64,000 nucleotides of DNA from positions 512,001-576,000 of the forward strand of contig CAWGRW010000009.1 in NCBI GenBank assembly GCA_963825135.1. The letters run 5' to 3'. The first letter of the stretch is position 1; every line of letters begins with the position of its first letter. Origin of the DNA: an uncultured bacterium (GTDB taxonomy: Bacteria; Desulfobacterota_D; UBA1144; Nemesobacterales; UBA2774). Positions 34,547 through 52,174 of this stretch are shown piece by piece. Both the position numbers and the translations under genes were made by a program. The notes under the pieces are model-generated. The model worked only from the letters and a program-made list of their open reading frames with translations, was not told the DNA's origin and ran no database searches.

Positions 34547-35020
34547 ATGCCTTTTCCAGAACCCCTTAAAGAAAGGATTGATGCGATCGTTTCGGGGTCC
34601 GAAACGAAACAATCGGCCCTCATACCGGTGCTTAGAGAGATCCAGAACGAATTCGGATATCTTTCTAACGAATCGATGGAAGAGACGGCTGAGATACTCG
34701 GGATTCCGCCCGCGAGCGTCCAGAACGTCGCGACGTTTTATACCATGTTCTTCAGAAAACCTGTGGGAGAACACGTAATCTGGCTCTGCCGAACCCTATC
34801 ATGCGCACTCAGGGGGGCCGAGCACGTCGAACATTATATGTGCGGACGCCTTGGCGTTAAGACAGGAGAGACCACGTCCGACGGGAAAATAACGCTCATG
34901 GAAGCGGAATGCCTAGCCTCCTGCGGAACGGCGCCCGTAATGCTCGTCGATGACAAGCTCGAAGAGAACCTCACGAAAGAAAAGGTCGACAGATTGATCG
35001 ATGAGCTCAGAAAAAGCTGA
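34547..35020 (+). CDS. nuoE: NuoE-like [2Fe-2S] protein, stand-alone
   Basis: SALIPVL, VATFYTMF, CRTLSC…CLASC; GGAG SD before ATG at 34547. Confidence 0.9.
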   Translation: MPFPEPLKERIDAIVSGSETKQSALIPVLREIQNEFGYLSNESMEETAEILGIPPASVQNVATFYTMFFRKPVGEHVIWLCRTLSCALRGAEHVEHYMCGRLGVKTGETTSDGKITLMEAECLASCGTAPVMLVDDKLEENLTKEKVDRLIDELRKS

Positions 35021-35075
35021 ATTCTTCTGAGGTTCCGCGAATCGGAAAATTTCCGATTCCCGAAATATACATAAA

Positions 35076-36410
35076 ATGGATTTCAAGAAATCGCGCGAAA
35101 ATGCCCTCAAGATATACCGGGAAGCCGTCGAAGCCGCTAACCCCTACAAATGTGTCCTCGACTACCTGAGCCGAAAAGGCGATGTGCTTACCGTAGACAA
35201 GAAGAGATATAGCCTGAACGAGTTCGGTTCGATCTACGCGGTGGCATTCGGTAAAGCCGCTACGTCGATGGCGGAAGCCGTCGAGGAGGTTCTCGACGAC
35301 AGGCTCTCGGGCGGCATCGTAGTATCGAATACCCAGCCTCAGAACCCTTACAAGAAACTCGGGTTTTATTTGTCGAGCCACCCCGTACCCGACGACAGGA
35401 GCCTCATCGCCGCAAAAGAGGTCCTTTCGATCCTGGACAGGGCGGGGGAGAACGATCTCGTGATCTTTCTCATTTCCGGGGGAGGCAGCGCGCTGCTTGC
35501 CATGCCTTCGCCGGGGATATCCCTTGACGACAAGAGGAAAGCCACCGAAACGCTCCTGAGGTCGGGTGTGGACAAATACGGGCTGAACGCGGTGAGGAAG
35601 CACATCTCCCAGATCAAGGGCGGAGGACTTCTGAAAAAGGCGCTCCCGGCAAAGGTAATAACACTTATCCTTTCGAACGTCGTGAGCGACAAGCTCGATG
35701 CCATAGCGTCGGGCCCGACTGTGCCAGACCCCACGACGTATGAAGACGCCTGGCGGGTGGTGGAAGCCCTCGACCTCGAACACAAGCTCCCCCCTCAGGT
35801 AATCGTCCATCTCGAGGAGGGGCGGAGCGGTAATGCGCCCGAAACCCTTAAAGAGGGTGAATACGACCAGAAAATCGTTCAGACTATTATTGTCGGAAAC
35901 AACTACAAATCCCTTAAAGCGGCCGAGAAAAAAGCCGGCGAGCTCGGATACAACACCCTAATGCTATCGTCGCAGATAAGCGGCGAGTCGAGGGAGGTCG
36001 CGAAGGTAGCGGCGGCGGTCGCGTTCGATATAGAGAGATTCGGAAATCCGGTTAAAAAACCGTCCTGCTTGATATTCGGAGGGGAGACGACCGTTACGAT
36101 TCAAAACAGTCTCGGAACCGGGAAAGGCGGCAGAAGCACGGAAACCGCCCTCTCCTTCTGCATGGAGATCATCGGGCACGACATCGTCGGGCTGTTCTGC
36201 GATACGGACGGCATTGACGGGCCCATAGACGCCGCCGGGGCGATCTGCGACGGTCAGAGCAGGCTCCAGGCGAGGACCATAAACGTGAGCGCGAGGGAGC
36301 ATCTGGCCCAGAATAACTCATATGACTTCTTCGACAAGCTGGGCGACCTCATCATCACAGGACCCACCGGCACAAACGTAATGGACATAGGCATCATACT
36401 GGTCGAATAA
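35076..36410 (+). CDS. Glycerate 2-kinase / hydroxypyruvate reductase (TtuD/MOFRL family)
   Basis: FGKAA, HPVPD, LISGGGSAL, IASGP, GGETTV, TDGIDG and TGTNVMD motifs. Confidence 0.92.
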   Translation: MDFKKSRENALKIYREAVEAANPYKCVLDYLSRKGDVLTVDKKRYSLNEFGSIYAVAFGKAATSMAEAVEEVLDDRLSGGIVVSNTQPQNPYKKLGFYLSSHPVPDDRSLIAAKEVLSILDRAGENDLVIFLISGGGSALLAMPSPGISLDDKRKATETLLRSGVDKYGLNAVRKHISQIKGGGLLKKALPAKVITLILSNVVSDKLDAIASGPTVPDPTTYEDAWRVVEALDLEHKLPPQVIVHLEEGRSGNAPETLKEGEYDQKIVQTIIVGNNYKSLKAAEKKAGELGYNTLMLSSQISGESREVAKVAAAVAFDIERFGNPVKKPSCLIFGGETTVTIQNSLGTGKGGRSTETALSFCMEIIGHDIVGLFCDTDGIDGPIDAAGAICDGQSRLQARTINVSAREHLAQNNSYDFFDKLGDLIITGPTGTNVMDIGIILVE

Positions 36411-36433
36411 CCTCTACCGTAGCGGGCGGATCA

Positions 36434-37162
36434 TTGAGATACGCTATCATCTCGGACATACATGCGAACCTCGAGGCCTTTAACTCAGTACTCGATGAAA
36501 TAGACGCCGCCGGGGCGGACATGATCGTCTGTCTCGGAGATATAGTGGGTTACGGGGCTAACCCCAACGAGTGCGTCGAGATCGTAATGAACCGGAACAT
36601 CGATTCTTTGATCGGCAATCACGACAAAGCCGCATGCGGCCTTACCGAGCCCACGGGCTTCAACCCGGCCGCAAGGGAGGCGGCGCTCTGGACGAGGGGA
36701 GAGCTCACGGAAAAAAACCGCGAGTTCTTAAAAGCCCTGCCCGAGACCAAAGAGATAAACGGTTTCGTTGCCGTCCACGGCGCGATCTCCGATCCCGACA
36801 GTTACATCCTGTCCCCGTACGACGCGGCCCGCGAATTCGGGCTCCTCGGAGAAAAAAGCCTTTGCTTCTTCGGCCACACACACGTAGCCGCGGCCTTTTC
36901 TCTAGATAACGGCCGTGTATCGGAGTCGAGAGCGGATAGGTTCGAATTGCGGGAGGGCCGGAAGTACCTCGTCAACCCGGGCAGCGTCGGCCAGCCGCGG
37001 GACAGAGACCCGCGCGCGTCGTTCCTTATATACGACACATGCGACGATAAGGGAAAAGCCGAGCGCAGGAGGGTCGAGTACCCCATAGAAAGAGCGCAAA
37101 AAAAGATAATCAAACGCGGGCTCGACAGCTTCCTCGCCGAGAGGCTCTCCCACGGATACTGA
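36434..37162 (+). CDS. Calcineurin-like metallophosphoesterase (YfcE/MJ0936-like)
   Basis: SDIHAN, GDIVGYG, GNHD, GHTH and NPGSVGQPRD motifs. Confidence 0.92.
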   Translation: MRYAIISDIHANLEAFNSVLDEIDAAGADMIVCLGDIVGYGANPNECVEIVMNRNIDSLIGNHDKAACGLTEPTGFNPAAREAALWTRGELTEKNREFLKALPETKEINGFVAVHGAISDPDSYILSPYDAAREFGLLGEKSLCFFGHTHVAAAFSLDNGRVSESRADRFELREGRKYLVNPGSVGQPRDRDPRASFLIYDTCDDKGKAERRRVEYPIERAQKKIIKRGLDSFLAERLSHGY

Positions 37163-37247
37163 AGCCGCTCCGTAAACCGCCCTTACTCCTTCCTTTTAAA
37201 ACCCACATGTTGAAAACATCGGAACAAGTGATTTAATATAGATAGTC

Positions 37248-38606
37248 ATGGAGATGCTCACACGTCAACTCCCCCAGAATCTGGAAGCGGAACAGGCCGT
37301 TCTGGGCGCTATTCTCATAGAGAGCTCGTCAATAAATCAGGTCCTCGAGATACTGACCGCCGAAGACTTCTATAAAGAGGCGCACAGGAAGATATTTAAC
37401 GCGATGATAGACCTCGACCGGGACAACAAGCCGATCGACCTCCTCACGCTGTTCGATTACCTGAAGGGAAACGGCAACCTGCTGGAGGAAGTTGGCGAGA
37501 GCAGTTATCTCACGTATTTGACGGAGATCGTGCCCGCTACGGAGAACGTGAGCTATTACGCGCAGCTGGTCAAGGAAAAGTCGATAGTAAGAAACCTCGT
37601 GATGGCCGCGAGCGATATCGCTCACAGGGGACACGAAGGGGTGTCGGATATCGACGAGTTCATAGACAGGGCCGAGCACGCGATCCTCGACATAGCTCAA
37701 AATAAAATCAAGCCCAGCTTCTACGAATCGCGGGACCTCGCGGCCAAAGCGCTCGATATAATAGAAGCCCTCCACGCCAGAAAGGAACTCGTCACCGGAA
37801 TACCAACCGGGTTCGAGAAGCTCGACTACATGACCTCGGGGCTCCAGCAGGCGGACCTGGTCATCGTTGCCGCGAGACCGGGTCTGGGGAAGACCTCCCT
37901 CTGCCTGAACATTGCCGCCCACGCCGGGATAGAGTACGGCATGTCGGTGGGTATTTTTTCACTCGAAATGACGAAGGAGCAGCTCATGCTGAGGCTCCTT
38001 TCGATGAAAGCGCTCGTCAGTTATTCGAATATCAGAAGCGGCTACATCAAGGACGAAGACCTGGAGAGTCTCGTAAAGGCGGCCGAGGAGTACAGCCGGG
38101 CGAAGATATATATCGACGATACGCCCGCTATAAGCGTGCTCGAGATTCGAGCCAAGGCCCGGAGACAAAAAAGGGATAAGGGGCTCGACTTAATCATCGT
38201 CGATTACCTCCAGCTGATGCGCGGCACGAGGAGAACAGAGACGAGGGAGCGCGAAATCGCCGAGATATCCGGGTCTCTGAAGGCCCTCGCGAAGGAGCTG
38301 AGTGTCCCCGTGATAGCCGTATCCCAGCTGAGCAGACAGACCGAGACGAGATCGGACAGGCGCCCGCAGTTATCCGACCTCAGGGAGAGCGGAGCTATAG
38401 AGCAGGACGCCGACCTCGTACTCTTCATACACCGGGCCGACGCCTACAGAAAGACCCCCGAGGAGAAAGACGGCATAGCAGAGCTTATTATAGGCAAGCA
38501 GAGAAACGGCCCCACCGGAACAGTGAAGCTTACTTTCCTCGACAGCTCGAGGGGTGTTCCCACTTTTAAAGACCTGTCCGAAGAATATACGGACGATTAC
38601 GGATGA
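37248..38606 (+). CDS. dnaB: Replicative DNA helicase
   Basis: EAEQAVLG, ARPGLGKT, DYLQL, SQLSR, DLRESGAIEQDAD and KQRNGP motifs; no intein. Confidence 0.98.
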   Translation: MEMLTRQLPQNLEAEQAVLGAILIESSSINQVLEILTAEDFYKEAHRKIFNAMIDLDRDNKPIDLLTLFDYLKGNGNLLEEVGESSYLTYLTEIVPATENVSYYAQLVKEKSIVRNLVMAASDIAHRGHEGVSDIDEFIDRAEHAILDIAQNKIKPSFYESRDLAAKALDIIEALHARKELVTGIPTGFEKLDYMTSGLQQADLVIVAARPGLGKTSLCLNIAAHAGIEYGMSVGIFSLEMTKEQLMLRLLSMKALVSYSNIRSGYIKDEDLESLVKAAEEYSRAKIYIDDTPAISVLEIRAKARRQKRDKGLDLIIVDYLQLMRGTRRTETREREIAEISGSLKALAKELSVPVIAVSQLSRQTETRSDRRPQLSDLRESGAIEQDADLVLFIHRADAYRKTPEEKDGIAELIIGKQRNGPTGTVKLTFLDSSRGVPTFKDLSEEYTDDYG

Positions 38607-38667
38607 TTAATCAGGATGAGTAGTCAGGGCAGCGGGAAACTGCGGGAATCCGGCGGATCGATTCTTT

Positions 38668-39306
38668 TCAAACCATCATGGGTATGACTACGGCTTTCGA
38701 TTTTACTTCCCTGTGAAAGAGCCCTTCGTCAGACTGCCAGGAGCGGAACCTGTCGGAAATCTCCTTGAGCCTTTCCCTCACGGTAGTCCAGTAGAAATCC
38801 CAGGCGTAATCCTTCTTCCTGCTTTTAAAAAACATGTTGAAGAATATCTCCCTCTCGACCGGGAAGCCTTTCTCCGCAACCCACCCGGTGCGGACGCTCC
38901 CGTACCCGGCGCCGAAGGCCATGGCGAAGGTGCCGTTCAAGCCGAGCCTCTCTGAGGCCTTTGTCGCAAGCTCGATGAAAACATAAAGCGCCTCCGAAGT
39001 CGAATACCCGCGTACGGCGAACTCCCCGTCCATGGCGAGGAGGTTGTCAACAAAGTACATCGGGTAAAACGTGGGGGCGTAAACGGAGACTGACTTCGTG
39101 GGGCTTATGAGAGGCTGCCTTATAATTACGTCCTCTTTAATGACCCCTATCATGAAGTCCTCTTTATCGAACCCGCCTATGTCGCCGCACTCCCCGAGGG
39201 AGAGCCTCACGTTCTCCCATTCCCTCTCGGCGATGACCAGGGCCCTTTCGAGACGCTTCTCGCCCTCATCGAATTCCCTGTCTTTCAGGAGCTCTTCCAG
39301 TTCCAT
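38668..39306 (-). CDS. Hypothetical protein
   Basis: 212-aa ORF with GAGG SD, fills the gap; no recognisable motif. Confidence 0.7.
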   Translation of the reverse strand: MELEELLKDREFDEGEKRLERALVIAEREWENVRLSLGECGDIGGFDKEDFMIGVIKEDVIIRQPLISPTKSVSVYAPTFYPMYFVDNLLAMDGEFAVRGYSTSEALYVFIELATKASERLGLNGTFAMAFGAGYGSVRTGWVAEKGFPVEREIFFNMFFKSRKKDYAWDFYWTTVRERLKEISDRFRSWQSDEGLFHREVKSKAVVIPMMV

Positions 39307-39501
39307 GTCGTCCTCTCTTGAACCGATCCCTGCATAAAACTCAGACCGTAAAAATATACCCCGATAATATAGGTTCTCAATGTTTCAGCCCCGGCTTTAT
39401 CAAGAATCCCCGCAATCGGCCTGATCGGAGAGGCCGGGGCCATTGTTTTTAAGCGGCGTGTATTGTAATATGAGTTTTCCAAGGCGTCAGGGGGTTCTTA
39501 T

Positions 39502-40485
39502 ATGGCAACACTAGTTACGGGGGCCACGGGGTTTTTAGGCTCTCACATAGCGAGAAAACTGGCGGAGAGGGGGGACAAGGTAAGGATTCTCCTCAGAAAG
39601 ACCAGTAAAACGATAAATATCGACGATATCAACGCTGAGCGGGTTTACGGCGACGTAACTGACATAGACTCGATCAGAAAAGCGCTGGAAGGCTGCGATA
39701 CACTCTACCACGCGGCGGGCATCGTATCGCTCAAGCAGGCAGATTCCAAAAAGATGGAGGATATAAACGTAAAAGGTACCTGTAACGTACTCATGGCAGC
39801 GATGGAAGCGGGCGTGAAAAAAGTGGTCTATACGAGCAGCGTCGCCGCAATAGGGTTAAAACCGGGGAAAGAGGCCGCCGACGAAGAGACGCCGTTTGAC
39901 CCGGCCGCGACCGACATCCAGTATATCAAATCGAAATACTACGCGGAGCAGGAGGCCCTTAAATTTTTCGGGAAAGGCCTGCCGCTCGTGATCGTCAACC
40001 CTTCGATAGTGATAGGCGCAGGAGACGTCTACGTCTCGACCACGGGTATCATTCTCTGGTACTGCAAGAGGAGGTTTCCGGGATATACGGACGGAGGCAT
40101 AAATCTCGTCGACGCCGAAGACGTCGCCACCGGACACCTGCTTGCGGCGGAGAAGGGCAGACTTGGCGAGCGCTACATACTGAGCAGCCGCAATATCACC
40201 ATAAAAGAGCTATTCGAGGTCATAGAGAAGGTGACGGGAATCCCGGGACCGAAGATGAAGATACCCTACCCGCTCGCTTACATGGGCGCGTTTATCGCCG
40301 AGCGCGTATTCGGCATACCCGCGCCCAACTACTCAGCCATTCAACTAGACTCTATAAAGGCGTCAAAGCACTACTGGTATGTCGATAATTCAAAGGCGGT
40401 CAGGGAACTCGGCTTCTCTACGAGGCCGCTTGAAGAAACAATAGAAAGCACAGTAAAGTGGTTCAAGGAAAACGGTTATCTGTGA
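39502..40485 (+). CDS. NAD-dependent epimerase/dehydratase (HpnA/dihydroflavonol-reductase-like extended SDR)
   Basis: TGATGFLG, YTSS, YIKSK (YxxxK) and GRLGERYIL motifs. Confidence 0.9.
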   Translation: MATLVTGATGFLGSHIARKLAERGDKVRILLRKTSKTINIDDINAERVYGDVTDIDSIRKALEGCDTLYHAAGIVSLKQADSKKMEDINVKGTCNVLMAAMEAGVKKVVYTSSVAAIGLKPGKEAADEETPFDPAATDIQYIKSKYYAEQEALKFFGKGLPLVIVNPSIVIGAGDVYVSTTGIILWYCKRRFPGYTDGGINLVDAEDVATGHLLAAEKGRLGERYILSSRNITIKELFEVIEKVTGIPGPKMKIPYPLAYMGAFIAERVFGIPAPNYSAIQLDSIKASKHYWYVDNSKAVRELGFSTRPLEETIESTVKWFKENGYL

Positions 40486-40505
40486 ATTTAAGCGTTCACC
40501 CTTGT

Positions 40506-40534
40506 TTGTAACCATTATCCCGTTAATATAGACT
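40506..40534 (+). promoter_or_regulatory. Candidate promoter for a leaderless aroC transcript
   Basis: TTGTAA-N17-TAGACT, 6 nt before ATG 40541, no SD. Confidence 0.5.
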
Positions 40535-40540
40535 CTTGTC

Positions 40541-41612
40541 ATGCCCGGAAATTCATTCGGACAACCTGTTTCGTATCACGACATGGGGCGAGTCCCACGG
40601 TCTGGCGCTCGGCGTAGTCATAGACGGCTGCCCGGCGGGTCTCGAGATATCGAAAGAGGATATACAATTCGAGCTCGACCGCAGGCGCCCCGGACAGAGC
40701 AGGATAACCACGCAAAGAAAAGAATCTGACAGCGTCGAGATTCTCTCAGGCGTATTCGAGGGAAAAACGCTCGGCACGCCTATCTCGCTCATGGTCAGGA
40801 ACGAGGACGTTATTTCCAAATCCTACGAGGATATTAAAGACACGTACCGGCCCGGACACGCCGATTATACGTACGACGCGAAATTCGGCATAAGGGATTA
40901 CAGGGGCGGCGGCAGGTCTTCGGCAAGGGAGACGGTTGGAAGGGTCGCCGCGGGGGCGGTCGCAAAAAAGATCCTGAATATGAACGGTATAAATACATAC
41001 GGGTTCGTCAGGCAGGTCGGACGGATCGCGGCAAAAAAAATAGACCTCGACGAGATAGAGAGGAACATAGTGAGATGTCCCGATGCCGAAAAGGCCGCCC
41101 AAATGATTGAGCTGATAGAAAAGGTGAGGAAGGAAGGGGACTCGGTCGGCGGCACGGTGGAGGTAATTTCGAAGGGACTTCCGGCGGGTCTCGGGAATCC
41201 GGTATTCAATAAGCTGGACGCTGATCTCGCTTCGGCGCTTATGAGCCTCGGGGGAATAAGGGGGTTCGAAGTAGGCATGGGCTTCGAAGCGTCCAAAAAG
41301 AAAGGCTCTCAGGTGAACGACGTAATGTATAAAGACAAAGCTGGAAGCCTCAGGTTTAAAACGAATAACGCGGGCGGTCTCCTTGGCGGGATTACGAACG
41401 GCGAGGACCTCGTCGTGCGAATCGCCATCAAGCCTACTTCTTCCATCTCCAAGGTTCAGCATACCGTAGATAAATACGGCAACCCGAAAGAGCTCAAGGT
41501 AAAGGGCAGGCACGACCCGTGCCTATGCCCGAGGGCAGTGCCTATAGCAGAGGCGATGGTAAACCTCGTTCTCGCCGATCATCTGCTCATGTCCAGAGTC
41601 GCGAGGATTTAA
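40541..41612 (+). CDS. aroC: Chorismate synthase with an apparent 1-bp insertion near 40561-40566
   Basis: MPGNSFG in one frame and LFRITTWGESHG, RPGHAD, RSSARET, GRHDPC in the next. Confidence 0.95.
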
Positions 41613-41691
41613 ATCCCCGCAGATCGATAAGTGCGGAAATGCATTCTCTCGCCCCCGGCAGTGTTTCCCACCGCCCATTTCATATAACCTA

Positions 41692-41720
41692 TTGAAACAA
41701 AAAACAAATTGCACTAAACT
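41692..41720 (+). promoter_or_regulatory. sigma70-type promoter upstream of the riboswitch
   Basis: TTGAAA-N17-TAAACT, about 20 nt before the aptamer. Confidence 0.6.
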
Positions 41721-41739
41721 TGCAAAAAGGGTTAGTATC

Positions 41740-41832
41740 CTTCCGAAATGGCAAACTATCCGAAAGGGTAGGACGCAAAGCCTCAAGCCTAAGGACGCCT
41801 GAGCGGTGTCTAGGGCGGTTGGGTTGCCGAAG
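41740..41832 (+). ncRNA. c-di-GMP-I (GEMM-I) riboswitch
   Basis: GGCAAAC-TATCC-GAAA-GGGTA-GGACGCAAAGC…CCTAA…GGTTGCCGA matches the class I consensus (GNRA tetraloop, CUAA receptor); P1 CTT(C)CG/CGAAG. Confidence 0.93.
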
Positions 41833-41950
41833 AACGTATACTTGCAATAATTCTAATAATCAAGGATTATTATGGTAGAGCTATAAACAAATATATTAAC
41901 AATGTTAAAGAACAATGCTAAAATAATTTTTTGAGAGGGGGATCCGAATA

Positions 41951-44707
41951 ATGGGGATAATAATCCGAGAATCGAAAGAACGGAGAAGGCATGAAAGAAT
42001 CCCTGTGGATTTTCATGTCTATTCGAAAAATTCCGGCAAGAAGATCGGGCAGGCGAAAGACCTCTCGTATAAAGGGCTATTCATACAAACTGAAGACGAG
42101 TTCAAGCCGGGAACTAAGCTCCTTCTCGAGTGTGATTTATCAGGCACGTTTCCCATCAAGGCCTACTGTGAAGTAAAGAGGCACGAAACAAACGGTACCG
42201 GCGAGCACGGTATCGGGGTCGAATTCATAAACATATACGATTCGGACAGGACGAAGTTAGAGAGCTATATCGAGAAAAGTAAAAATACCCTCAACTCCGA
42301 CGACTATTATCTATCCGACTTCGCGGACATCCCGGACGAGGACCTCTTTAAAAAGGCCGAAGTATTCTGGCAATACGGACTGGACATGGCGTCGAAGGGA
42401 TACATCAGATACAGAAGACCCCTGGCGTCGCCCTCGGCGCACAGAGTGATCATCGACGACGACTTCACCGGAAAGAAAAAAGAGATGATCATGATGGGCA
42501 GCAACAACTACCTCGGGCTCACATCCCATCCGAGGGTTATGAAAATAGCCAAAGAAAATATCGATAAATACGGCGCAGGCGCAGGCTCGGTGCCGCTCCT
42601 GGCCGGGTCGTTCGACATACACAGGCGGCTGGAGATGAAGCTGGCCGAGCTCAAGGGCGCAGAGGACGCGATAATCTTTCCGAGCGGATACGTTACGAAC
42701 CTCGGATGCATACAGGCGCTTGTTAAAAATGAGGACCTCGCGGTCATAGACAGGCTCGCCCACGCGAGCATCATCGACGGCTGTATGCTGTCCTCAGGCA
42801 CATTCAGGACATTCAAGCACTCGGACGTCCGGAGCCTCGAAAACGTATTAAAAAGAAATAGAGACAATTTTAAAGGAAGGATAGTTATAGTCGACGGCGT
42901 ATACAGCATGGACGGGGACATAGCCCCTCTCAGGCAGATCGCCGAGACGGCCCACAGGTACGGCGCCAAGGTTATGGTGGACGAGGCTCACGCCACAGGT
43001 GTCATTGGGGACAGGGGCAAGGGAACTCCCAGCCATTTTAAAATGAAGCCCGGAGAGATAGATATCGTTATGGGCACGCTGAGCAAATCCCTGGGCGGCG
43101 TCGGCGGATTCATAGCTTCGACGAAAGAAGTAGTGAGCTACCTGAGGTACTACACCAGGTCCTTTTTCTTCTCGTCCAATTTCCCCCCTTCCGTCGCGGC
43201 CTCGGTACTGGCCGCGATCGAGGTAATGGAAACGGATAAATCCATCCACGAAAACCTCTGGAAGAATATCAAGCACATGAAGGAAAACCTGAAATCAATG
43301 GGATTCAACACGGGGCAGACCGAGTCGGCGATCATCCCCGTTATGACCGGCGACGAGCTCACCCAGAAAAAGATGAGCAGGAGGTTCCATGAAGAGGGGA
43401 TATACGTAAACGCGATACCTCATCCCGCCGTGCCGAAAGGACATGAAAGGTTCAGGTTCAGCCTAATGGCCACACACACGCGCGAAGACATCGACAAGAC
43501 GCTCGAGGTTGTTGAAAAACTGGGAAGGGAATTCGGTATCATCGACAGACCGGTCTCTCTCTACGTGTCTGAAAATGACAAATACACCGTGAGAGAAATA
43601 TCTACCAAAGAGGAGATCGAAAAATCTGTCAGGTTCTCGTGGGGAGTGTACAAGGATTATCCCGCGTGGGTGCCTTACTTCCTGATAAAAGATCAGGTTA
43701 AGCTCGTTTCGAACGACTACTTCTACTTCAGAAAGGTCTACGGGAAGCGGTTCGTTGTGGAGGAAAAAGGAGAGATAGCGGGAACCGTAAGTGCGTTTAT
43801 CGACAATTACTACAACCGTTATCACGATACCAACGCAGGGTTCCTCGGGTTTTTCGAGGCCCTCCCTGAAAAACAGGAAGCTGTGGGACTGATGCTGAAG
43901 AAGGCGGAAGATTTCCTCACCGGCAACGGATGTACCGAGCTGCAAGGACCCGTGAACGGGATATTCGGTCTCTTCGGCGGCGGCCTGCTCTCGAGCAACT
44001 ACGGGAAGATACCGTCCTTCCTCCAGGTATACACCCAGCCCTACTACCACGACTATTTCACAAACGCGGGGTTCGGGCCGGTGAAAAAGCTCCTGCACTA
44101 CACTATAGACCTTAAATCGCCCGAGAACGTGGAAGCGATAATGAAATACTCTCGGGAATCGGCGCTGCAGGATATAAAGATAAGGCGAATGAACAAATCC
44201 GACTGGGAGAACGAGGTGAGGAGCGTGGTCAGGATTTTCAACAATTCCCTCGCTCAGCTCTGGGGCAATGTCCCGTTTGACGCCGACGAGTTCATAGAGA
44301 TCGCGGATGAATTCAAGAGCCTTATAGTTCCCGAATACTGGCTAATCGCGGAATCGGCCGGCGAAGCTATAGGCTTCATAGGGGGATTCCCCCAGTACGC
44401 TTCCGTATTCAGGGGCTTAAACGGGGAGATCAAGCCCCACAAGCTGGTGACGCTGCCCCTCCGGCTAAGAGGCATCAAGGAAGGCGTGTTAATGATCATG
44501 GGCCTCATGGACGAATTTAAGGGAAGGAGAATCGGCACCCTCCTCCTCAGCAGAGTCTGCGAGGCGATGATCGGGAACGGGTACGAAAAGGTAGCCGGCA
44601 CATGGGTTCTGGAAGATAACCTGGGCTCGCGGCGTATCGTGGAGAACCTGGGCGGCAAGGTAGATCTATACTGGGATATGTATTCGAAAACACCTGTTAC
44701 AGGCTGA
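41951..44707 (+). CDS. Fusion: PilZ + PLP-dependent alpha-oxoamine synthase (SPT/BioF/CqsA family) + YghO/bCerS-like GNAT N-acyltransferase
   Basis: RRHER and DLSYKG (PilZ); SNNYLGL, HASI, DEAH, GTLSK (alpha-oxoamine synthase); VYKDYPAWVP, GFLGFFE, GPVN, RRIGTLL, TWVLEDN (GNAT). Confidence 0.88.
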   Translation: MGIIIRESKERRRHERIPVDFHVYSKNSGKKIGQAKDLSYKGLFIQTEDEFKPGTKLLLECDLSGTFPIKAYCEVKRHETNGTGEHGIGVEFINIYDSDRTKLESYIEKSKNTLNSDDYYLSDFADIPDEDLFKKAEVFWQYGLDMASKGYIRYRRPLASPSAHRVIIDDDFTGKKKEMIMMGSNNYLGLTSHPRVMKIAKENIDKYGAGAGSVPLLAGSFDIHRRLEMKLAELKGAEDAIIFPSGYVTNLGCIQALVKNEDLAVIDRLAHASIIDGCMLSSGTFRTFKHSDVRSLENVLKRNRDNFKGRIVIVDGVYSMDGDIAPLRQIAETAHRYGAKVMVDEAHATGVIGDRGKGTPSHFKMKPGEIDIVMGTLSKSLGGVGGFIASTKEVVSYLRYYTRSFFFSSNFPPSVAASVLAAIEVMETDKSIHENLWKNIKHMKENLKSMGFNTGQTESAIIPVMTGDELTQKKMSRRFHEEGIYVNAIPHPAVPKGHERFRFSLMATHTREDIDKTLEVVEKLGREFGIIDRPVSLYVSENDKYTVREISTKEEIEKSVRFSWGVYKDYPAWVPYFLIKDQVKLVSNDYFYFRKVYGKRFVVEEKGEIAGTVSAFIDNYYNRYHDTNAGFLGFFEALPEKQEAVGLMLKKAEDFLTGNGCTELQGPVNGIFGLFGGGLLSSNYGKIPSFLQVYTQPYYHDYFTNAGFGPVKKLLHYTIDLKSPENVEAIMKYSRESALQDIKIRRMNKSDWENEVRSVVRIFNNSLAQLWGNVPFDADEFIEIADEFKSLIVPEYWLIAESAGEAIGFIGGFPQYASVFRGLNGEIKPHKLVTLPLRLRGIKEGVLMIMGLMDEFKGRRIGTLLLSRVCEAMIGNGYEKVAGTWVLEDNLGSRRIVENLGGKVDLYWDMYSKTPVTG

Positions 44708-44714
44708 TCTGATA

Positions 44715-47288
44715 ATGAATGAGAAACAGCTGACTATGCCGAAATACGGCACTGCGAACATACAGAAATCTGTATTCAGCATAGTTATATTTATTTTGCT
44801 GTTGTTTTGCATAGCAAACTTCGTTTTAGGCCTGAACTGGACAAATAAACCATATCCGGGATTTTTCTTCTATAGAAACCTCGTAATAACCGATATCTCT
44901 CCGAAGACAGTTGACGGAGATTCACTAAAAAGATTCAAAGACCAGATAAAGAAAGTTAATGGCATACCGGTCACAACACCGGGCGATGTATTCAACATAT
45001 TAGACGATCTCCCTGTAGGCACCGAGGTGGACTACACGATAGCGAGAAACAGCGGGACTTTCGATCTAAGAATCCCTATTGAGAGGTTCAGTTTAAAAGA
45101 ACTGCTCGTTATGTTCGGAATCGGATATGTAATCGGCATTGTCTTCCTCGCTATCGGCGTACTCGTCCTGTACAAGAAACCGAACATAAAGGCGAGTAAA
45201 GCGTTCTTCATATTCTGCGTGTCTATTTGTATATGGTTTGTTGGCTCGTTCGACGCGCAGGCCATCTATTTCTTCGACCAGCTGACTTTCTTCTCCTGGA
45301 TCTTCAGTCCGCTCTTCGGCATTTATCTGATGTTCATTTTTCCTTCTGATGCGCAGGTAAACGGAGTGACGCACACCGTCACTTCAATCCTGTTTTTATT
45401 TATCTCGGCAATGCTATTCGTCCTCCAATTCATCTTCTTCTACAACTATGAAATATGGAAATATGTCAATACCATAAGCTGGATTTACGTAGTCCTGAGC
45501 ACCATGATTTTCCCCATCTCTTCGCTCGTGACCTACATGCATCCGTCGTCGGCGCTTGAAAAACAACGCGCACAGATAATCTTGCTCGGCTGCATTTTCG
45601 GCCTCATCGCCCCGGCTTCGGTGGTGGCTTGCATCACGGTCTTTAAAATTAGCATGCCGTACAATCTGATGGCTCTCCCAGTGATAATATTCCCGGTGTC
45701 CATCGCATACTCCATAGTAAAACACAAGCTCTTCGACATAGACGTTATCATTGAAAAGGCGCTCACGTACGGACTCCTCACAGGAGCCGTCGGCGGCATC
45801 TTCGCCCTCACCGTGCTCGGATTCAATGTCGCATTCGCCAAATACGGGGGCTGGAAGAATCCCGCATTCTTCGTAATCCTGAGCGGGTTTCTCGTAATTG
45901 CGTTAAACCCCCTCAAAACCCGGATACAGGACCTGGTAGACCTGACCTTTTTCAGAAAGAAGTACGATTACAGGGGAACCGTCGAGGAAGTAAGCTATGC
46001 GATGACGTCCCTCCTGAGCCTCGACAAGATCATCGATAAGATCATCGATATAGTCGAAAGCACCATGTTCTCCACCCCTGTTACCGTATCCGTATACAAC
46101 CAGGACCTGGGGGCTTATGAGCGGTATTCCAAAGAGGGCGTCATCCAGAGCTCTCCCGATACGACGCTCGCGGAGGACAATATTCTCGTACAGCAGCTCA
46201 ATTTTCACGGAAACGAGATATTCAAGGAAGACCTTATAGCGGACGAGAGGTATATCCACAACTCCCAGAGACTCGTGAACGAATTCGAGAGATTCGGCGC
46301 ATCGCTCATCATTCCGCTTTTTTTCAAAAAACAACTCATCGGCTTCATAGCCCTCGGAGAAAAGAAGTCCGGACTCTCGTACACATCACGGGACGTGAAA
46401 CTCCTAAAGCTTCTCGCAAACCAGAGCGCTATAGCCATAGAAAACGCGCTCGCATTCAAGCTCGTCGAGGACTACGCCAAGAAGCTCGAAAAAACGAATA
46501 AGGAGCTCAAGGATGCGCAGATGCAGCTCGTGCATGCTGAAAAGATGTCCGCGATCGGACAGCTTGCCGCGGGCGTTGCCCACGAGATAAGGAACCCGCT
46601 GAACATCATCGAAGGCGCCAGGTACTACATCTCCACCTACATGATGGACAAAGAAAATACGGAGGTCGTCGGAGAGTACCTCGACTACATAAAACACGAG
46701 ATCGACAGGACGAACCGTCTGATAGACAGCCTGCTCAAGTTCTCAAAAGCCGAGCCGCCCTATTTCGAGAGGGTTAATATAAACAGCGTGCTCGAGAACG
46801 TCGTTATCCTCGTACGCAAGCAGCTCTCGGACAACAACATCAACCTCACCCAGAACCTGGACGAGAACATCCCTCCCATAATGGCGGACCCGAACCAGCT
46901 CTGGCAGGTATTCATAAACATTATTTTAAACGCGATACAAGCGATGCCGAAAGGCGGAGACTTCGTAATAGAGACTTCTACGCGCTGGGACGAATTCGCC
47001 AGCGGGGACTCCGGACACGTCTACATACATTTCAAAGACTCCGGAGTGGGAATAGATAAAGAAGACATGATGAGAATCTTCGATCCGTTCTTCACAAAGA
47101 AAGATATGGGGACGGGACTCGGGCTTTCGATAGCCTACAAGATCATCGAAAAGCATAAAGGAAGAATAATAGTTGAGAGCGAAAAGGGGCAAGGAACGGT
47201 ATTTACGATTGAACTTCCGTCAAATAACTATAATATTACTTCAGGAGAGGTTGATGACGAACACGAAAAAGAGGGTGCTGGTTGTTGA
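44715..47288 (+). CDS. Membrane sensor histidine kinase (TM-PDZ-multi-TM-GAF-HisKA-HATPase)
   Basis: DQIKKVNG PDZ-like motif; about 8 TM segments; GFIALGEKKSG…LANQSAIAIENA GAF; AHEIRNPL H-box; N, G1, F and G2 boxes. Confidence 0.92.
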   Translation: MNEKQLTMPKYGTANIQKSVFSIVIFILLLFCIANFVLGLNWTNKPYPGFFFYRNLVITDISPKTVDGDSLKRFKDQIKKVNGIPVTTPGDVFNILDDLPVGTEVDYTIARNSGTFDLRIPIERFSLKELLVMFGIGYVIGIVFLAIGVLVLYKKPNIKASKAFFIFCVSICIWFVGSFDAQAIYFFDQLTFFSWIFSPLFGIYLMFIFPSDAQVNGVTHTVTSILFLFISAMLFVLQFIFFYNYEIWKYVNTISWIYVVLSTMIFPISSLVTYMHPSSALEKQRAQIILLGCIFGLIAPASVVACITVFKISMPYNLMALPVIIFPVSIAYSIVKHKLFDIDVIIEKALTYGLLTGAVGGIFALTVLGFNVAFAKYGGWKNPAFFVILSGFLVIALNPLKTRIQDLVDLTFFRKKYDYRGTVEEVSYAMTSLLSLDKIIDKIIDIVESTMFSTPVTVSVYNQDLGAYERYSKEGVIQSSPDTTLAEDNILVQQLNFHGNEIFKEDLIADERYIHNSQRLVNEFERFGASLIIPLFFKKQLIGFIALGEKKSGLSYTSRDVKLLKLLANQSAIAIENALAFKLVEDYAKKLEKTNKELKDAQMQLVHAEKMSAIGQLAAGVAHEIRNPLNIIEGARYYISTYMMDKENTEVVGEYLDYIKHEIDRTNRLIDSLLKFSKAEPPYFERVNINSVLENVVILVRKQLSDNNINLTQNLDENIPPIMADPNQLWQVFINIILNAIQAMPKGGDFVIETSTRWDEFASGDSGHVYIHFKDSGVGIDKEDMMRIFDPFFTKKDMGTGLGLSIAYKIIEKHKGRIIVESEKGQGTVFTIELPSNNYNITSGEVDDEHEKEGAGC

Positions 47289-49170
47289 CGACGAGCTCCT
47301 TATATTGAAAATCATTTCCGACATCCTGACCAAGGAGGGGTATGAAGTCGTAGTCGCCAATAACTGCGAGAAAGCGACCGAGTACCTGAGGGCGTCCAAT
47401 TTCAATGTAGTCTTGTCCGACATCAAAATGCCGGTAAAAAGCGGTATCGACCTTCTTGAGGAAATAAAGAAGAAAGACCCGAATATCCCCGTAATACTTA
47501 TGACCGGATTTGCTTCGTTGGAAACAGCGGTTGAGGCAGTACAGAACGGAGCCTTCGATTACCTCATTAAACCACTCGACTACGGGAAACTCAGGAGCGT
47601 CATAGACCACGCAGCCGATAGATTCGAACTCCACAGCGAAAACACGCGCCTGCTGAGCGATTTGAAAGAGCTGAACACGAATCTTGAATTGAAGGTCCGG
47701 GAAAGGAACAGGCAGCTTGAGAATACGCTGAATAGTACGATAGAGAGCATAATCACAACCGACAGGGACCTGATAATAGAATCAGCGAACCCGAAGACCT
47801 CGGAAATTTTCGGCAGAAGCTGCGTGGGCGAAAAACTGAGTCTCTTATTTCAGGGTGTTAATTTTGACACAATTATTCCAAACATTCTAAGCGACCCCTC
47901 ATATTCGACGAAGCACGAAATAAGATACGACAATAAGTTCCTCGAAGTTAGCCTGTCGCCCCTGATCGATTTTGAGACGAAAGAAATTTTCGGCGTGATA
48001 GCAGCGACGGAAGACATAACGGAGAAGAAGAAGCTCGAAGCGCAGCTCATACATTCCGCGAAGATGTCGGGTGTCGGCCAGCTGGCCGCCGGCGTCGCAC
48101 ACGAATTCAATAATATCTTGTCAGGCATCATAGGCTACACGAGCCTCGCGCTCACGAGGCAGGACCTGGACAGCGTCAGGAAAGACCTGAGAGTAATCGA
48201 GAAGGCCTCCGACAGGGCGGTCGAGATAGTGAACAAACTCCTTTCCTTCTCAAGACAAAAAGGGGAGAAATTCCAGGTCGCACAGATAGAGAGCATCATA
48301 GACGACGCGCTCGGACTCGTTGAGCACAACTTCGAAACGGAGGGTATAAGAATACTCAGGAGTTACGAAAAGGTCCCCGCCATCCGATTGAATCCGGGGG
48401 AGATACAGCAGGTGTTCCTGAACCTCGCGATCAACTCGAAACACGCCATGCCTAAAGGCGGAGCGATAGCGATCAGCACGAAGCTCTCCGGCAATTATGT
48501 GAGAATCGATTTCTCCGATACGGGCATTGGCGTATCACCGGAGAACCTGCCCAGGATATTCGAACCCTTTTTCACGACAAAACTGAGCGAGGGCACAAAA
48601 TCCGGCACGGGTCTCGGTCTGTCGGTAATATACGCGATCATAGAAAGACACGGCGGGCGCATCGAAGTATCGAGCGAGGTCAATAAAGGCACGACGTTCA
48701 CGATTCACCTGCCGAACATTCAGGCCATTGCCAAAACTCCCGAGATCGAGCCCGCTCAGAAAGTACAGAACGCCAAAGTAATCGAAATGAGGCGAAAAGG
48801 GAATGTCTTGATAGTCGATGACGAAGAATTCATCAGAGATATCGTAAGTGATTGCCTTTCCAGCACCGGACACAATGTTATGACGGCTGAAAGCGGCGAC
48901 CAGGCGATCGAGCTCATAAAGAGGAATCATTTCGACATCACGTTCCTCGATTTCTCCATGCCTAATAAAAGCGGTCTCGAACTTCTGAGAGAAATAAAAG
49001 TTATCGATCCCAACTCCACGGTGGTAATAATAAGCTCGAGACCGGAAGAGCAGCTCCCGGACGAGCTTTCGGACGAGGGCTCGTACAATATAATTAAGAA
49101 ACCGTTCTCGGTCGACCAGATTCAAAACGCGGTCTCCAGGGTTCTTGGGGCCGAGGCGATGAGCAGATAA
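47254..49170 (+). CDS. Cytoplasmic hybrid kinase REC-PAS-HisKA-HATPase-REC
   Basis: VLVVDDE…SDIKMP…KP; AHEFNNIL; GTGLGL; second VLIVDDE…LDFSMP…KKP; AGGAGAGG SD before ATG at 47254. Confidence 0.93.
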   Translation: MTNTKKRVLVVDDELLILKIISDILTKEGYEVVVANNCEKATEYLRASNFNVVLSDIKMPVKSGIDLLEEIKKKDPNIPVILMTGFASLETAVEAVQNGAFDYLIKPLDYGKLRSVIDHAADRFELHSENTRLLSDLKELNTNLELKVRERNRQLENTLNSTIESIITTDRDLIIESANPKTSEIFGRSCVGEKLSLLFQGVNFDTIIPNILSDPSYSTKHEIRYDNKFLEVSLSPLIDFETKEIFGVIAATEDITEKKKLEAQLIHSAKMSGVGQLAAGVAHEFNNILSGIIGYTSLALTRQDLDSVRKDLRVIEKASDRAVEIVNKLLSFSRQKGEKFQVAQIESIIDDALGLVEHNFETEGIRILRSYEKVPAIRLNPGEIQQVFLNLAINSKHAMPKGGAIAISTKLSGNYVRIDFSDTGIGVSPENLPRIFEPFFTTKLSEGTKSGTGLGLSVIYAIIERHGGRIEVSSEVNKGTTFTIHLPNIQAIAKTPEIEPAQKVQNAKVIEMRRKGNVLIVDDEEFIRDIVSDCLSSTGHNVMTAESGDQAIELIKRNHFDITFLDFSMPNKSGLELLREIKVIDPNSTVVIISSRPEEQLPDELSDEGSYNIIKKPFSVDQIQNAVSRVLGAEAMSR

Positions 49171-49186
49171 TAAAGCGCGACGGAAT

Positions 49187-49549
49187 ATGGAAGACGCTCC
49201 TTCTTTTTACTGCAAAATATTCGTAAACGAAAACGAGATATATTCGGGAGACTTCGGGGAAGTCCCCGAGAAGTTCAGGACCGGCATGGTCAGGGACCTG
49301 TCGGAATGGGCGGGATCGCTCGGCAAGAGGGGCCTGAACGAGCTCATTTATTCACACCTCGCCTGGTATGAAGAAAAGGGTCAATATTGCGAGGAGTGCG
49401 GAACGTGGAAGGCGGAAAGCGGTGTGAAAGAGTGCGGCGAGTGCGGAAAAAAGCTGAAAGAACGTTATATTTATGAGCGGGAGAAGAGGCTCGACATGAT
49501 TATCACCTGTGTGGGAATGATATCAGGAGTGCAAATTTCAGCAGCTTAG
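49187..49549 (+). CDS. Hypothetical protein with a zinc ribbon
   Basis: CEECG…CGECG pair. Confidence 0.7.
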   Translation: MEDAPSFYCKIFVNENEIYSGDFGEVPEKFRTGMVRDLSEWAGSLGKRGLNELIYSHLAWYEEKGQYCEECGTWKAESGVKECGECGKKLKERYIYEREKRLDMIITCVGMISGVQISAA

Positions 49550-49591
49550 AACGGAAGCCTGACGACAGGCGCAATTCAATAGGGGTCGAAA

Positions 49592-49882
49592 ATGAAATTA
49601 ACAGTTAAAGGTCAGATTTTTCCCGGGGTCTGGAAGATCGCGGATAGCGTCAGGAAACTGAGAGACGACAGAAAGCCCGTTAATATAGGATCCGGGACGG
49701 TCGGATTTCCCGTCTATGAAGTGGACCTCCCGGACAATACCAGAAAAGAGGGTCTATACTTTGTGACTCCGGAGGGCACAAGACTCTACTTTAACCCTGG
49801 CGATCAGTATCAGGTCGGCTACCTGATATCCGAAACCGACAGCGACCCGCTGCGAGAAAAACATTTTAAAGGGACCGCATAA
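49592..49882 (+). CDS. Hypothetical protein
   Basis: 96-aa ORF with AGGGG SD. Confidence 0.6.
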   Translation: MKLTVKGQIFPGVWKIADSVRKLRDDRKPVNIGSGTVGFPVYEVDLPDNTRKEGLYFVTPEGTRLYFNPGDQYQVGYLISETDSDPLREKHFKGTA

Positions 49883-49959
49883 AGCGCGCCTTCGTCTAAA
49901 ACCCGCCCGGACGGCCTGCATTTTGACTCCCGGCAGGAGGCTATGTACTTTTAATTCCG

Positions 49960-50910
49960 ATGGAGCAGCACGACCATACTCACGAGATAAGAAACGCCAA
50001 GGAAAAAAAGGCGCTGATTATAGTGCTTATAATCACGGCGAGCTTCATGATACTGGAAGCCGCTTCCGGATTCTACACCGGAAGTCTCGCCCTCCTATCG
50101 GACGCGGCGCACATGCTCACGGACGTGTTCGCGCTGTCGATCGCTTACTTCGCCCTCTGGTTCTCCGTTAAACCGCCGACCGTCGACAAAACCTTCGGGT
50201 TCTACAGGACGGAGATTCTCGCCGCGTTCATAAACGGAATCCTTCTGTTCGTAATCTCGGCGGGCATTATCATGGAGGCCTACGAAAGGATCAAGACCCC
50301 TCAGGAGATAAAGAGCCTTGAAATGACCGCCGTGGCAGTGACGGGTCTGATACTCAACATAGGCTCGGCCTATATGTTGTCCAGATATCAGAGCACGAAC
50401 CTGAACATAAAAAGCGCTCTCTACCATGTGATAAGCGATACGCTAGGCTCGGCAGGAGCCGTGGTCGCGGGCGTGGTGATGCTTTTCACCGGATGGTATT
50501 ATGCCGACAGCATCATAAGCATCCTGGTCTCCGTCCTGATATTGAGAAGCGCATGGGTCATCATAAAGGAGTCGGTGCATATTCTCCTCGAAGGCACGCC
50601 TCGGGGCATCGACCTCGAATCCGTACAGAGCTCGATCCGCTCACACGAGGGAGTCCTCGGCGTACACGACCTGCACGCATGGACGCTCACTCAGGGATTC
50701 GAAGCGTTAAGCGCGCACCTCGTCGTCGACGACATGCACAGAAGCGAAAGCCTGATCAGCGATATACGGGATCAGCTGTACGGCAAATTCCGCATCAGCC
50801 ACGTTACGCTTCAGCTGGAGACTAAGGAGTGCTGCTCCGCGAACAACACCTGTTACGAAGACTCTCAGGGCGGGAAAGAGAACGGGGCGGTCACTCACCC
50901 TCACGGATGA
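49960..50910 (+). CDS. Cation diffusion facilitator (CzcD/ZitB-like Zn/Co/Cd exporter)
   Basis: SLALLSDAAHMLTD, TFGFYRTE, HVISD, HDLHAW and HVTLQLE motifs. Confidence 0.95.
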   Translation: MEQHDHTHEIRNAKEKKALIIVLIITASFMILEAASGFYTGSLALLSDAAHMLTDVFALSIAYFALWFSVKPPTVDKTFGFYRTEILAAFINGILLFVISAGIIMEAYERIKTPQEIKSLEMTAVAVTGLILNIGSAYMLSRYQSTNLNIKSALYHVISDTLGSAGAVVAGVVMLFTGWYYADSIISILVSVLILRSAWVIIKESVHILLEGTPRGIDLESVQSSIRSHEGVLGVHDLHAWTLTQGFEALSAHLVVDDMHRSESLISDIRDQLYGKFRISHVTLQLETKECCSANNTCYEDSQGGKENGAVTHPHG

Positions 50911-52153
50911 GCTTCTCGGCATATGACTTCATATCATCGCCTACCTTCTTGAGCTCGGGTTTGGATTGCACATACTTCTCGAGCGCTTCGAGCACGCTCA
51001 TGGTCTTTGTGAGCTCGGTCTGTCTCATTGTTTTCCCGGGCTTGGAGAAGATTCTCTCTATCTTTAGCGTCTGAGCGCCCTCGAACGCGGCCCTGATCCC
51101 GCGTTCGTCCACTTCCTCCCCGGGACTCCCGACCTCGTATCTTACCCTCACTACGGCTCCGTTTACGTCTATTCGGGAGAACCTGTCGAGACCCGGGTCT
51201 TTGCCGCGGTCCGCACCCACTTCTCCCAGATCAATTGTGATAAATTTCCTCGCCGGGGTCTCCCTGAATTCAAAGACGCAGGTCCAGCCTCCGGGCGTCT
51301 CTACAAGCTCGCCCAGGACAAATCCCTTTCGCTCCTTCTCCTCCGTGAAGTCGATCCTCTCGATACTGCCCGAATAGACCACCGGGGGGACGTCCCCTTC
51401 GTTCAGGTCCTGAAACCGGTGGATGTGACCGAGCGCGACATAATTAAACGCGCTGTCGCCGAGCACCGCTACCGGGACCACGGGATCGGAAGTCGATAGC
51501 GTGTCGAGTTCGGTACCGGATAGTTTCGCCCCCCTTGCCGCCACGTGCCCGAGCAATACCGCGGGGTCTCTCCTGTCGATCTTTTTTGCGAGTCCGCGGA
51601 TTATATCCCCCAGTCTCCTTTCTATCTCCGCCTGGAGCTCCTGAGGGGATAGCGACCTGTATTCTTCTTTCGCGAGAAGAGCGCCCCTTCCCGCCCACGG
51701 CAGGCATGCGACCTGGACCGTTCCGCTATTCGTGCTTACATGAATCAACTCGGGTTTTCTGGCTATGGTCACGCCCTCGATAGCGAGGGCAGGGAAGATT
51801 TCCACGGCGGAAGCGCCTGTGCCTGAAGCCGAGTAGTCATGGTTCCCGAGCACTATGACAACCCGGGCCCCGTCTCTACCGGCCGCTTTTCCGATTCTGC
51901 GGGCGAATTCTATTTCTTCCGCGGGAAGCGGGTTTTCTCTGTGGAACACATCTCCCGCGATGAGTATGAGGTCGACGGATTCGTTCGACGCGGTTTCCAA
52001 TACGTGATCGAGACACTTCAGTATGTCTTCGAATCTCGTGTTGTATCCCGTCGACGGGTTCAGCCTGCCGTGCGTCAGAAGTCCGATATGTATATCGGAT
52101 AAGTGAATGAACCTTATTTTTCTCAACCGCGGTCCGGCGCTTCGGAAACTCAA
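50891..52153 (-). CDS. sbcD: SbcD/Mre11 family nuclease (start may be TTG 52126)
   Basis: HLSDIHIG, AGDVF, GNHD, ALGHIH and YSGS motifs. Confidence 0.88.
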   Translation of the reverse strand: MSFRSAGPRLRKIRFIHLSDIHIGLLTHGRLNPSTGYNTRFEDILKCLDHVLETASNESVDLILIAGDVFHRENPLPAEEIEFARRIGKAAGRDGARVVIVLGNHDYSASGTGASAVEIFPALAIEGVTIARKPELIHVSTNSGTVQVACLPWAGRGALLAKEEYRSLSPQELQAEIERRLGDIIRGLAKKIDRRDPAVLLGHVAARGAKLSGTELDTLSTSDPVVPVAVLGDSAFNYVALGHIHRFQDLNEGDVPPVVYSGSIERIDFTEEKERKGFVLGELVETPGGWTCVFEFRETPARKFITIDLGEVGADRGKDPGLDRFSRIDVNGAVVRVRYEVGSPGEEVDERGIRAAFEGAQTLKIERIFSKPGKTMRQTELTKTMSVLEALEKYVQSKPELKKVGDDMKSYAEKLIREGE

Positions 52154-52174
52154 CCGTTCCCTGGAACGCTTCTT

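Follow-up and report, generated by a model that had tools for sequence, protein, structure and literature searches.

A cyclic di-GMP-linked synthase-acyltransferase fusion and its co-varying sensor kinase in an uncultured bacterium of the Desulfobacterota_D

In Vibrio, Legionella and Bacteroides, alpha-oxoamine synthases (AOS) produce signals for receptors encoded next to them (PMC3376566, PMC13080023). In the alpha-hydroxyketone systems CqsA/CqsS of Vibrio and LqsA/LqsS/LqsR of Legionella, the AOS synthase stands beside a multi-helix membrane histidine kinase, and the specificities of synthase and receptor co-evolve (PMC3376566). The Lgs/TetR system of Bacteroides fragilis uses a non-Cqs AOS to make a released regulatory small molecule (PMC13080023). 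Here we describe a gene cassette of an uncultured bacterium (GTDB lineage Bacteria; Desulfobacterota_D; UBA1144; Nemesobacterales; UBA2774), in which a PilZ domain, an AOS and a tandem GNAT acyltransferase are joined in one protein whose gene is followed by that of a membrane histidine kinase. The cassette lies in a stretch of 64,000 nucleotides that is called the window below (assembly GCA_963825135.1, contig CAWGRW010000009.1, positions 512,001 to 576,000). Positions are those of the window; the fusion gene, its domains, its riboswitch, the exchangeable block and the four genes that follow the fusion all lie on the forward strand.

Two further systems invite comparison. In staphylococcal agr the kinase domain is conserved, whereas the N-terminal sensor half of the kinase varies in step with the genes that make the signal (PMC5007282). 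In the Spt-bCerS-CerR ceramide pathway of Caulobacter crescentus and the yghO cluster of Escherichia coli, an AOS-family enzyme dependent on pyridoxal phosphate (PLP) is followed by a tandem GNAT of the bCerS/YghO family, both soluble and encoded in the order spt-bcerS (PMC11087976, PMC9386255, PMC11334938); yghO is a listed orthologue of the Caulobacter acyltransferase (PMC9386255). We give a probability of roughly 0.6 to the reading that the window carries a cognate synthase-receptor cassette, in which a synthase of an N-acylated amino-ketone, gated by cyclic di-GMP (c-di-GMP), would be read through its product by the adjacent kinase, with specificity types resembling those of agr.

Fusion gene and c-di-GMP control elements

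The fusion gene (41951..44707) is a single open frame of 918 codons, and its product has no predicted membrane helix. Pfam detects a PilZ domain (PF07238, residues 10-108, 41978..42274, E 1.4e-14), an Aminotran_1_2 match (residues 178-520, E 7.9e-57) inside the AOS domain at about residues 140-535 (42368..43555), and an Acetyltransf_1 match (residues 791-901, E 2.4e-10) inside the tandem GNAT domain at about residues 545-918 (43583..44704), which was recognized by homology, tree and predicted fold. The AlphaFold model likewise contains three folded modules (mean pLDDT 76, pTM 0.59). An earlier note, made from the sequence alone, had described a continuous frame with PilZ, PLP and GNAT modules and both c-di-GMP motifs of PilZ intact. 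We confirmed both statements, locating RxxxR at R12-R16 and DxSxxG at D37-G42. Among the 120 matches listed in a protein search there are at least 41 full-length fusions, the query included, with 42-100% identity, and 35 two-domain PilZ-AOS relatives; source labels of the listed homologues are Deltaproteobacteria/Thermodesulfobacteriota. The fusion is therefore no assembly artefact. Both PilZ motifs are kept in 39 of the 41 fusions and 27 of the 35 two-domain relatives, and some of the misses are truncated starts.

The gene is preceded by a c-di-GMP-I riboswitch aptamer (41740..41831; Rfam RF01051, 78.2 bits against a cut-off of 35), 120 nucleotides 5' of the start codon. The same aptamer was found upstream of 18 out of 20 fusion loci scanned, one of the misses being a locus cut by a contig end. 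In what follows, G-numbers denote the genomes compared in the class (n=120), P-numbers homologous proteins and L-numbers loci. Four of 12 non-fused loci carry the aptamer: in G013, where PilZ is lost, it lies upstream of the AOS, and in G004, G006 and G009 between the AOS and the next gene. The aptamer keeps the consensus GGCAAA and has G rather than A at the position that presumably corresponds to G20 of the Vc2 aptamer. A G at this position of Vc2 favours c-di-GMP over c-AMP-GMP (PMC6140456). The leader fold has a z-score of -2.05, and no terminator was found around the aptamer in a search of positions 41550-42050. A promoter-like site between aptamer and gene (41896-41924) could bypass the riboswitch. 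Control of the fusion by c-di-GMP, as proposed in the earlier note from the PilZ motifs, is supported at the level of sequence, and the conserved riboswitch strengthens the case for it.

The fusion's riboswitch is one of 10 c-di-GMP-I riboswitches in this genome, in which motif patterns also reveal three GGDEF-motif and two HD-GYP-motif frames. Judged by eye only, the genes led by other riboswitches seem to encode secreted proteins, components of polysaccharide export and, as an operon, a type IV pilus. HD-GYP and GGDEF genes stand beside some of the cassette loci. In those families of the class that have small genomes, riboswitches and cassette are for the most part both missing.

Sensor kinase and exchange of a synthase-sensor block

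A membrane histidine kinase of 857 amino acids (44715..47288) starts 7 nucleotides after the fusion stop. It consists of one N-terminal helix, a PDZ-like periplasmic domain, about nine more helices, and GAF, HisKA and HATPase domains; PDZ_2 is matched in the G022 orthologue. In a set of 28 loci (16 fused, one split and 11 two-domain), a kinase with the PDZ, multi-helix and GAF layout follows the synthase in 27, and the 28th locus is cut by a contig end. The next gene is a hybrid kinase, REC-(PAS)-HisKA-HATPase-REC (47173..49170, true start probably near 47257), which is probably the next phosphorelay step. The sensor half occurs in 42 of the 120 genomes, including 37 of the 38 that have this AOS type. 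Of the remaining five, two are G015 and G030, and three have a distant paralogue only.

Synthase and sensor half have been exchanged between lineages as one block. DNA alignments and trees delimit it at 42057..45680, from about codon 36 of the synthase to about codon 322 of the kinase. Against G074, a genome of the same genus, DNA aligns with 78-80% identity at 33843-41616, 41673-42056 and 45681-52945, flanks that take in aroC, the riboswitch and the first 35 synthase codons and resume at kinase codon 322 or so, whereas inside the block nothing aligns except 293 nucleotides at 67%. Two other members of the genus align throughout, block included. Protein identities between G074 and this genome are 90% for aroC, 91% for the kinase domain and 84% for GAF, as against 51% for AOS, 41% for GNAT and 26% for PDZ, and along the kinase identity steps from 12-52% to 85-98% at about residue 320. 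A similar step near residue 320 is seen in the pairs G001/G008, G001/G010, G097/G078 and G011/G005, and at the DNA level in G013/G015. An assembly chimera in G074 was considered and rejected, as the independently assembled P0028 has the same chimeric junction.

The trees agree with the alignments. G074, G078, G008, G010 and G011 form a clade in the AOS tree (99.9) and the sensor tree (99.8), which the approximately unbiased (AU) test rejects in the kinase tree (p-AU 5e-43); conversely, six genus members form a clade in the kinase tree (100) that is rejected in the AOS and sensor trees (p-AU about 1e-42), the groups tested having been picked after the identities were seen. With the kinase partialled out, AOS distance across 24 genomes, which are not independent, tracks that of the transmembrane region (partial r 0.57) but not that of GAF (0.11). 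By synteny, identities and trees alike, the synthase is linked to the sensor domain of the receptor and varies with it.

The enzymes next to the AOS vary as well. The AOS lacks a GNAT in 11 of the 28 loci, and the slot holds a short-chain dehydrogenase/reductase (SDR; G005, G031, G032), an S-adenosylmethionine (SAM) methyltransferase (G004, G022, G031), a Zn-dehydrogenase (G006) or nothing; in G013 the GNAT is split from the AOS. G015 (L162:5729-10739) has an unrelated SAM methyltransferase of 370 amino acids in place of the AOS, and shares aroC, the riboswitch, the first 26 or so codons and the kinase core with its genus-mate G013 at 84-86% DNA identity, but its sensor type differs. As predicted beforehand, this sensor is sister to that of the methyltransferase-bearing G004 (98/92). 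The G015 methyltransferase may resemble PhcB, the signal synthase of Ralstonia; members of its family are often fused to PilZ or cNMP domains. For each of the two GNAT types, the sensors group in a supported clade that spans families, and the sensor of G006, with its dehydrogenase, departs from those of its genus-mates.

Several observations weigh against a receptor matched to a signal. Synthase and sensor half adjoin physically, and transfer of either carries the other; the location of crossovers in conserved sequence has a mechanical cause; and since all genomes are kin within one class, Mantel p-values overstate the association. Concordance is imperfect, the AOS and sensor trees sharing seven of 21 splits and the AOS and kinase trees four of 21, and G005, with an SDR, and G007, without a cassette SDR, have near-identical sensors. 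No DNA-binding output regulator was found in the cassette, the closest references of the GNAT make membrane ceramide, and what the kinase reads could be the lipid within the membrane of its own cell, not a signal shared between cells. Linkage alone accounts for the co-transfer, but not for the divergence of sensors into types that track the enzyme.

Outside the block, two small genes follow the kinases and are possible outputs: one for a conserved 120-residue zinc-ribbon protein (49187..49549, weak Zn_ribbon_3 match) and one for a conserved 96-residue protein that matched no Pfam family (49592..49882), each present in 17 of the 28 loci. A signal-peptide protein of outer-membrane type, resembling TIGR04551 below its cut-off, occurs in nine of the 12 non-fused loci, and two homologues of it (34-39%) are encoded elsewhere in this genome, at G000:C9:1063854-1065410 and 262387-263886. 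In G031 (L163:7166-10969) and G030 (L164:7717-9513) a kinase stands straight after aroC without synthase or riboswitch and is possibly an orphan receptor; on a different contig, G031 also carries a complete cassette. A distant kinase paralogue, divergent from a dnaE-like gene and without a synthase, occurs in several family-2 genomes (L165-L167, L169). Kinases with a similar PDZ and multi-helix layout are found in Acidobacteriota, Chloroflexota and Myxococcota. Hidden Markov models detected neither PilZ nor the cognate sensor domain at 80 GTDB loci, mostly ordinary Spt/Kbl, among the at least 600 matches listed, a sample that says little on the range outside the class.

Catalytic domains and rival explanations

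The PLP domain is complete, as the earlier note had stated, with the catalytic lysine K379 at 43085-43087. The set H271, D344, H347, K379 and R502 is invariant across 20 aligned homologues, the AOS lysine motif is present in all 41 fusions, and the fold-type-I domain with this catalytic set places the protein in the AOS family. Within that family it fits none of the named types. The Spt clade (support 96-100) leaves it out in all five trees, for which references were drawn from annotated operons, the labels of the eight Spt references being assigned here from operon context and one tree being computed with a quick rather than a mixture model. Forcing the domain together with Spt was rejected by the AU test (p=0.0009; 27 of 49 rows, LG+G4). 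The GSRxLNG-type motif of Spt, which is seen in the Spt references of the tree, is found in none of 76 members of the present family, while P0159, a separate true Spt-bCerS fusion of the Spt clade, retains it. No NCBIfam model reaches its cut-off on the domain (379/640, 345/500 and 291/670 bits, score/cut-off, for Spt models; at best 409/535, 395/460 and 390/426 for models of the BioF/Kbl family). The description of the domain as Spt-like, understood as Spt membership, is thus not supported, and with the AOS outside the Spt clade and devoid of the Spt motif, ceramide synthesis is unsupported as the default function.

CqsA identity was rejected on model and structure-database scores, the trees containing no CqsA sequence (207.6-209.8 of 428 bits for NF005526; E 2.5e-34 in the PDB, where the best match is a promiscuous Thermus AOS, E 8e-87). 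BioF and Kbl branch apart from the domain, and a separate bioF lies at C9:1321667 after bioB-like and bioA-like frames. The earlier note had left BioF, Kbl or CqsA chemistry possible; membership in these families is contradicted by the cut-offs and, for BioF and Kbl, also by the trees, and the domain is not a plain BioF/Kbl. A plain enzyme of that type joined to an unrelated acetyltransferase with incidental neighbours would agree with the top-scoring models and the Thermus match, but is very improbable, as synteny and mosaic structure are not incidental.

The nearest relatives of the AOS are receiver-AOS, AMP/ACP-AOS and PilZ-less AOS-GNAT fusions and PigH, the seryltransferase of prodigiosin synthesis. 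The PilZ-less fusions P0156, P0185, P0199, P0229 and P0252, with a bCerS-type GNAT, belong to the same non-Spt group. In P0074 and P0148, a closely related AOS is joined to another kind of GNAT, which is FemAB-like, and P0074 has PilZ too; they represent a second route to the same architecture. P0085, P0091, P0100 and P0108 combine the AOS with either a receiver domain or a PF12147 methyltransferase; AOS fusions with regulatory domains recur. In G023 a contig end truncates a degenerate PilZ-AOS that has no PLP lysine motif (L063:1-1422).

The C-terminal 375 or so residues of the fusion align over 94-97% with YghO of E. coli and Pseudomonas and with GNATs inside spt-type operons. In tblastn the domain matches the best bCerS/YghO references colinearly, with 97% coverage and E 6e-37 to 7e-27, and it matches 43 plasmid records, the best of which lie in spt-GNAT-epimerase operons and yghO clusters. 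Identity to eight bCerS/YghO references is only 23-26%, as against 27-67% among the references themselves, and a Thr replaces the Arg that they share in the GRI motif. In an unrooted tree without Caulobacter bCerS, the GNAT family separates as a long-branched clade (100) next to the eight references (98). The last 379 residues modelled alone (pLDDT 83) match a tandem-GNAT fold (7q3a, Z 25.2, root-mean-square deviation 3.4 A, 305 aligned); bCerS structures were absent from the matches, which excludes nothing. Foldseek with the whole fusion returned PLP-domain matches throughout, the PDB sequence search with the fusion gave no GNAT match, and no NCBIfam model matches either the fusion GNAT or two of the bCerS references. 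Judged by sequence, the domain belongs to the bCerS/YghO family, probably as a divergent, long-branch sister group. The bCerS/YghO-like assignment of the earlier note accordingly stands as regards full-length homology and the tandem-GNAT model. In the class the GNAT occurs in 27 of the 120 genomes, fused except in G013, two extra short weak matches aside.

These affinities raise the strongest rival, a c-di-GMP-regulated structural ceramide synthase. On this view the present AOS clade would have acquired Spt-like activity independently, the GNAT would produce keto-ceramide, an SDR encoded elsewhere would reduce it, the lipid would remodel the envelope, and the kinase would at most monitor that lipid. 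This genome has no bCerS relative other than the fusion GNAT and, bioF apart, no AOS other than that of the fusion. The order of the domains is also that of the genes spt-bcerS in Rubrobacter, Streptomyces, Aureispira and many GTDB loci, and one survey extends the Spt-like label beyond known Spt to a broader clade if bCerS or CerR is near (PMC11334938). Three SDRs of the genome are 26-34% identical to CerR references, which are themselves only 24-37% identical to each other. One of the three, at 39502-40485, two genes upstream of the fusion, was considered as a dedicated CerR and set aside: it is HpnA-like, and it still lies beside aroC in loci that lack the synthase. Besides the missing Spt affinity, this explanation has to face the loci with AOS and no GNAT, in 10 of whose genomes the GNAT query has no match, and the swapping: a housekeeping lipid enzyme is not expected to be exchanged with a sensor half or to yield to a methyltransferase. 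Compared with the ceramide pathway, the fusion joins in one polypeptide with PilZ an AOS outside the Spt clade and a distant GNAT, and its conserved neighbours include no carrier protein, acyl-CoA synthetase or lptFG, all of which accompany the proteobacterial ceramide clusters retrieved for comparison; instead, a riboswitch and a co-varying kinase are present. The riboswitch and the kinase, neither of which the earlier note had recognised, make a signal the more likely product than a membrane lipid, and we regard a structural ceramide synthase as unlikely.

Still less probable is a secondary-metabolite pathway of the PigH kind, in which the amino-ketone would be cyclised or tailored to an antibiotic, pigment or surfactant and the kinase would serve feedback or self-protection. 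PigH of prodigiosin-type clusters and the fusions of AOS with a polyketide synthase (PKS) or with AMP and acyl carrier protein (ACP) domains are among the nearest annotated AOS relatives, the tailoring enzymes vary, and the outer-membrane-type protein is frequent in non-fused loci. PigH, labelled from cluster context, is the nearest annotated relative in three trees at 40-44% identity, but the support for this kinship is unstable (99, 97, 95 and 85 in four trees, 4 for the smallest shared node in the fifth), the active-site motifs differ, and the fusion has neither ACP domains nor a pig cluster. Among the conserved neighbours there is neither a gene for a carrier protein or PKS nor one for export or resistance, and N-acylation would, on chemical grounds, block pyrrole formation.

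Proposed function and significance

We infer the chemistry, the ligand-receptor relation and the role in signalling between cells as follows. By the chemistry of its family, the AOS would form an alpha-amino-ketone from an amino acid and an acyl thioester, either acyl-CoA or acyl-ACP. The GNAT of bCerS type fused to it would then most likely acylate the new amine to a keto-ceramide-like amide, trapping the reactive intermediate. Condensation followed by N-acylation is the two-step logic that the earlier note had put forward, and the analysis supports it. The product would leave the cytoplasm to be read by the PDZ and transmembrane half of the adjacent kinase, which would signal onward through the hybrid kinase. 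Output may be gated by c-di-GMP twice, at expression by the riboswitch and at the enzyme by PilZ, both elements being present. In other cassettes the same core may be reduced or methylated instead, and the sensors would differ along with the products. The swapping of synthase, tailoring enzyme and sensor half as one block would generate specificity types as in staphylococcal agr.

Such a cassette would work like a Cqs-type system without being a member of that group, and has a bCerS-family domain without being an Spt-bCerS pathway. The differences from Cqs are an AOS that is not of CqsA type, a receptor with PDZ, about ten helices and GAF where CqsS has six helices, the fused N-acyltransferase, and PilZ with the riboswitch. 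Lgs/TetR differs in its cytoplasmic TetR receptor and in having no GNAT and no c-di-GMP input (PMC13080023). agr relies on a peptide signal and unrelated proteins, whereas the product predicted here is small and lipophilic and the lineage Gram-negative. The open-access literature, covered through listings and abstract openings with the bCerS discovery paper and supplements outside this scope, yielded neither a protein with the PilZ-AOS-GNAT architecture nor a case of bacterial sphingolipid synthesis controlled by c-di-GMP nor a cassette of this kind.

As a tentative extension, to which we give somewhat less than even odds, keto-ceramide-like N-acyl amino-ketones may be cell-to-cell signals in this uncultured class, a new autoinducer chemistry arising from a repurposed ceramide-synthase domain, read by the family of PDZ and multi-helix kinases, diversified into pherotypes by recombination of cassettes, and made only when c-di-GMP allows it through the riboswitch and an allosteric PilZ domain. 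Even if the product were a structural ceramide, the locus would still link c-di-GMP to bacterial sphingolipid-like synthesis, a link not found in the literature searched. The natural pairs of type A and type B and the tailoring variants make the question of the ligand directly testable. If the cognate synthase-receptor reading is true, the cassette would provide a ligand class for a widespread type of orphan receptor, the PDZ and multi-helix kinases, and would tie c-di-GMP directly, at the molecular level, to the making of a signal. The bCerS-family enzymes would then not be confined to membrane ceramide, which would call for caution in surveys that equate AOS plus bCerS with sphingolipid producers.

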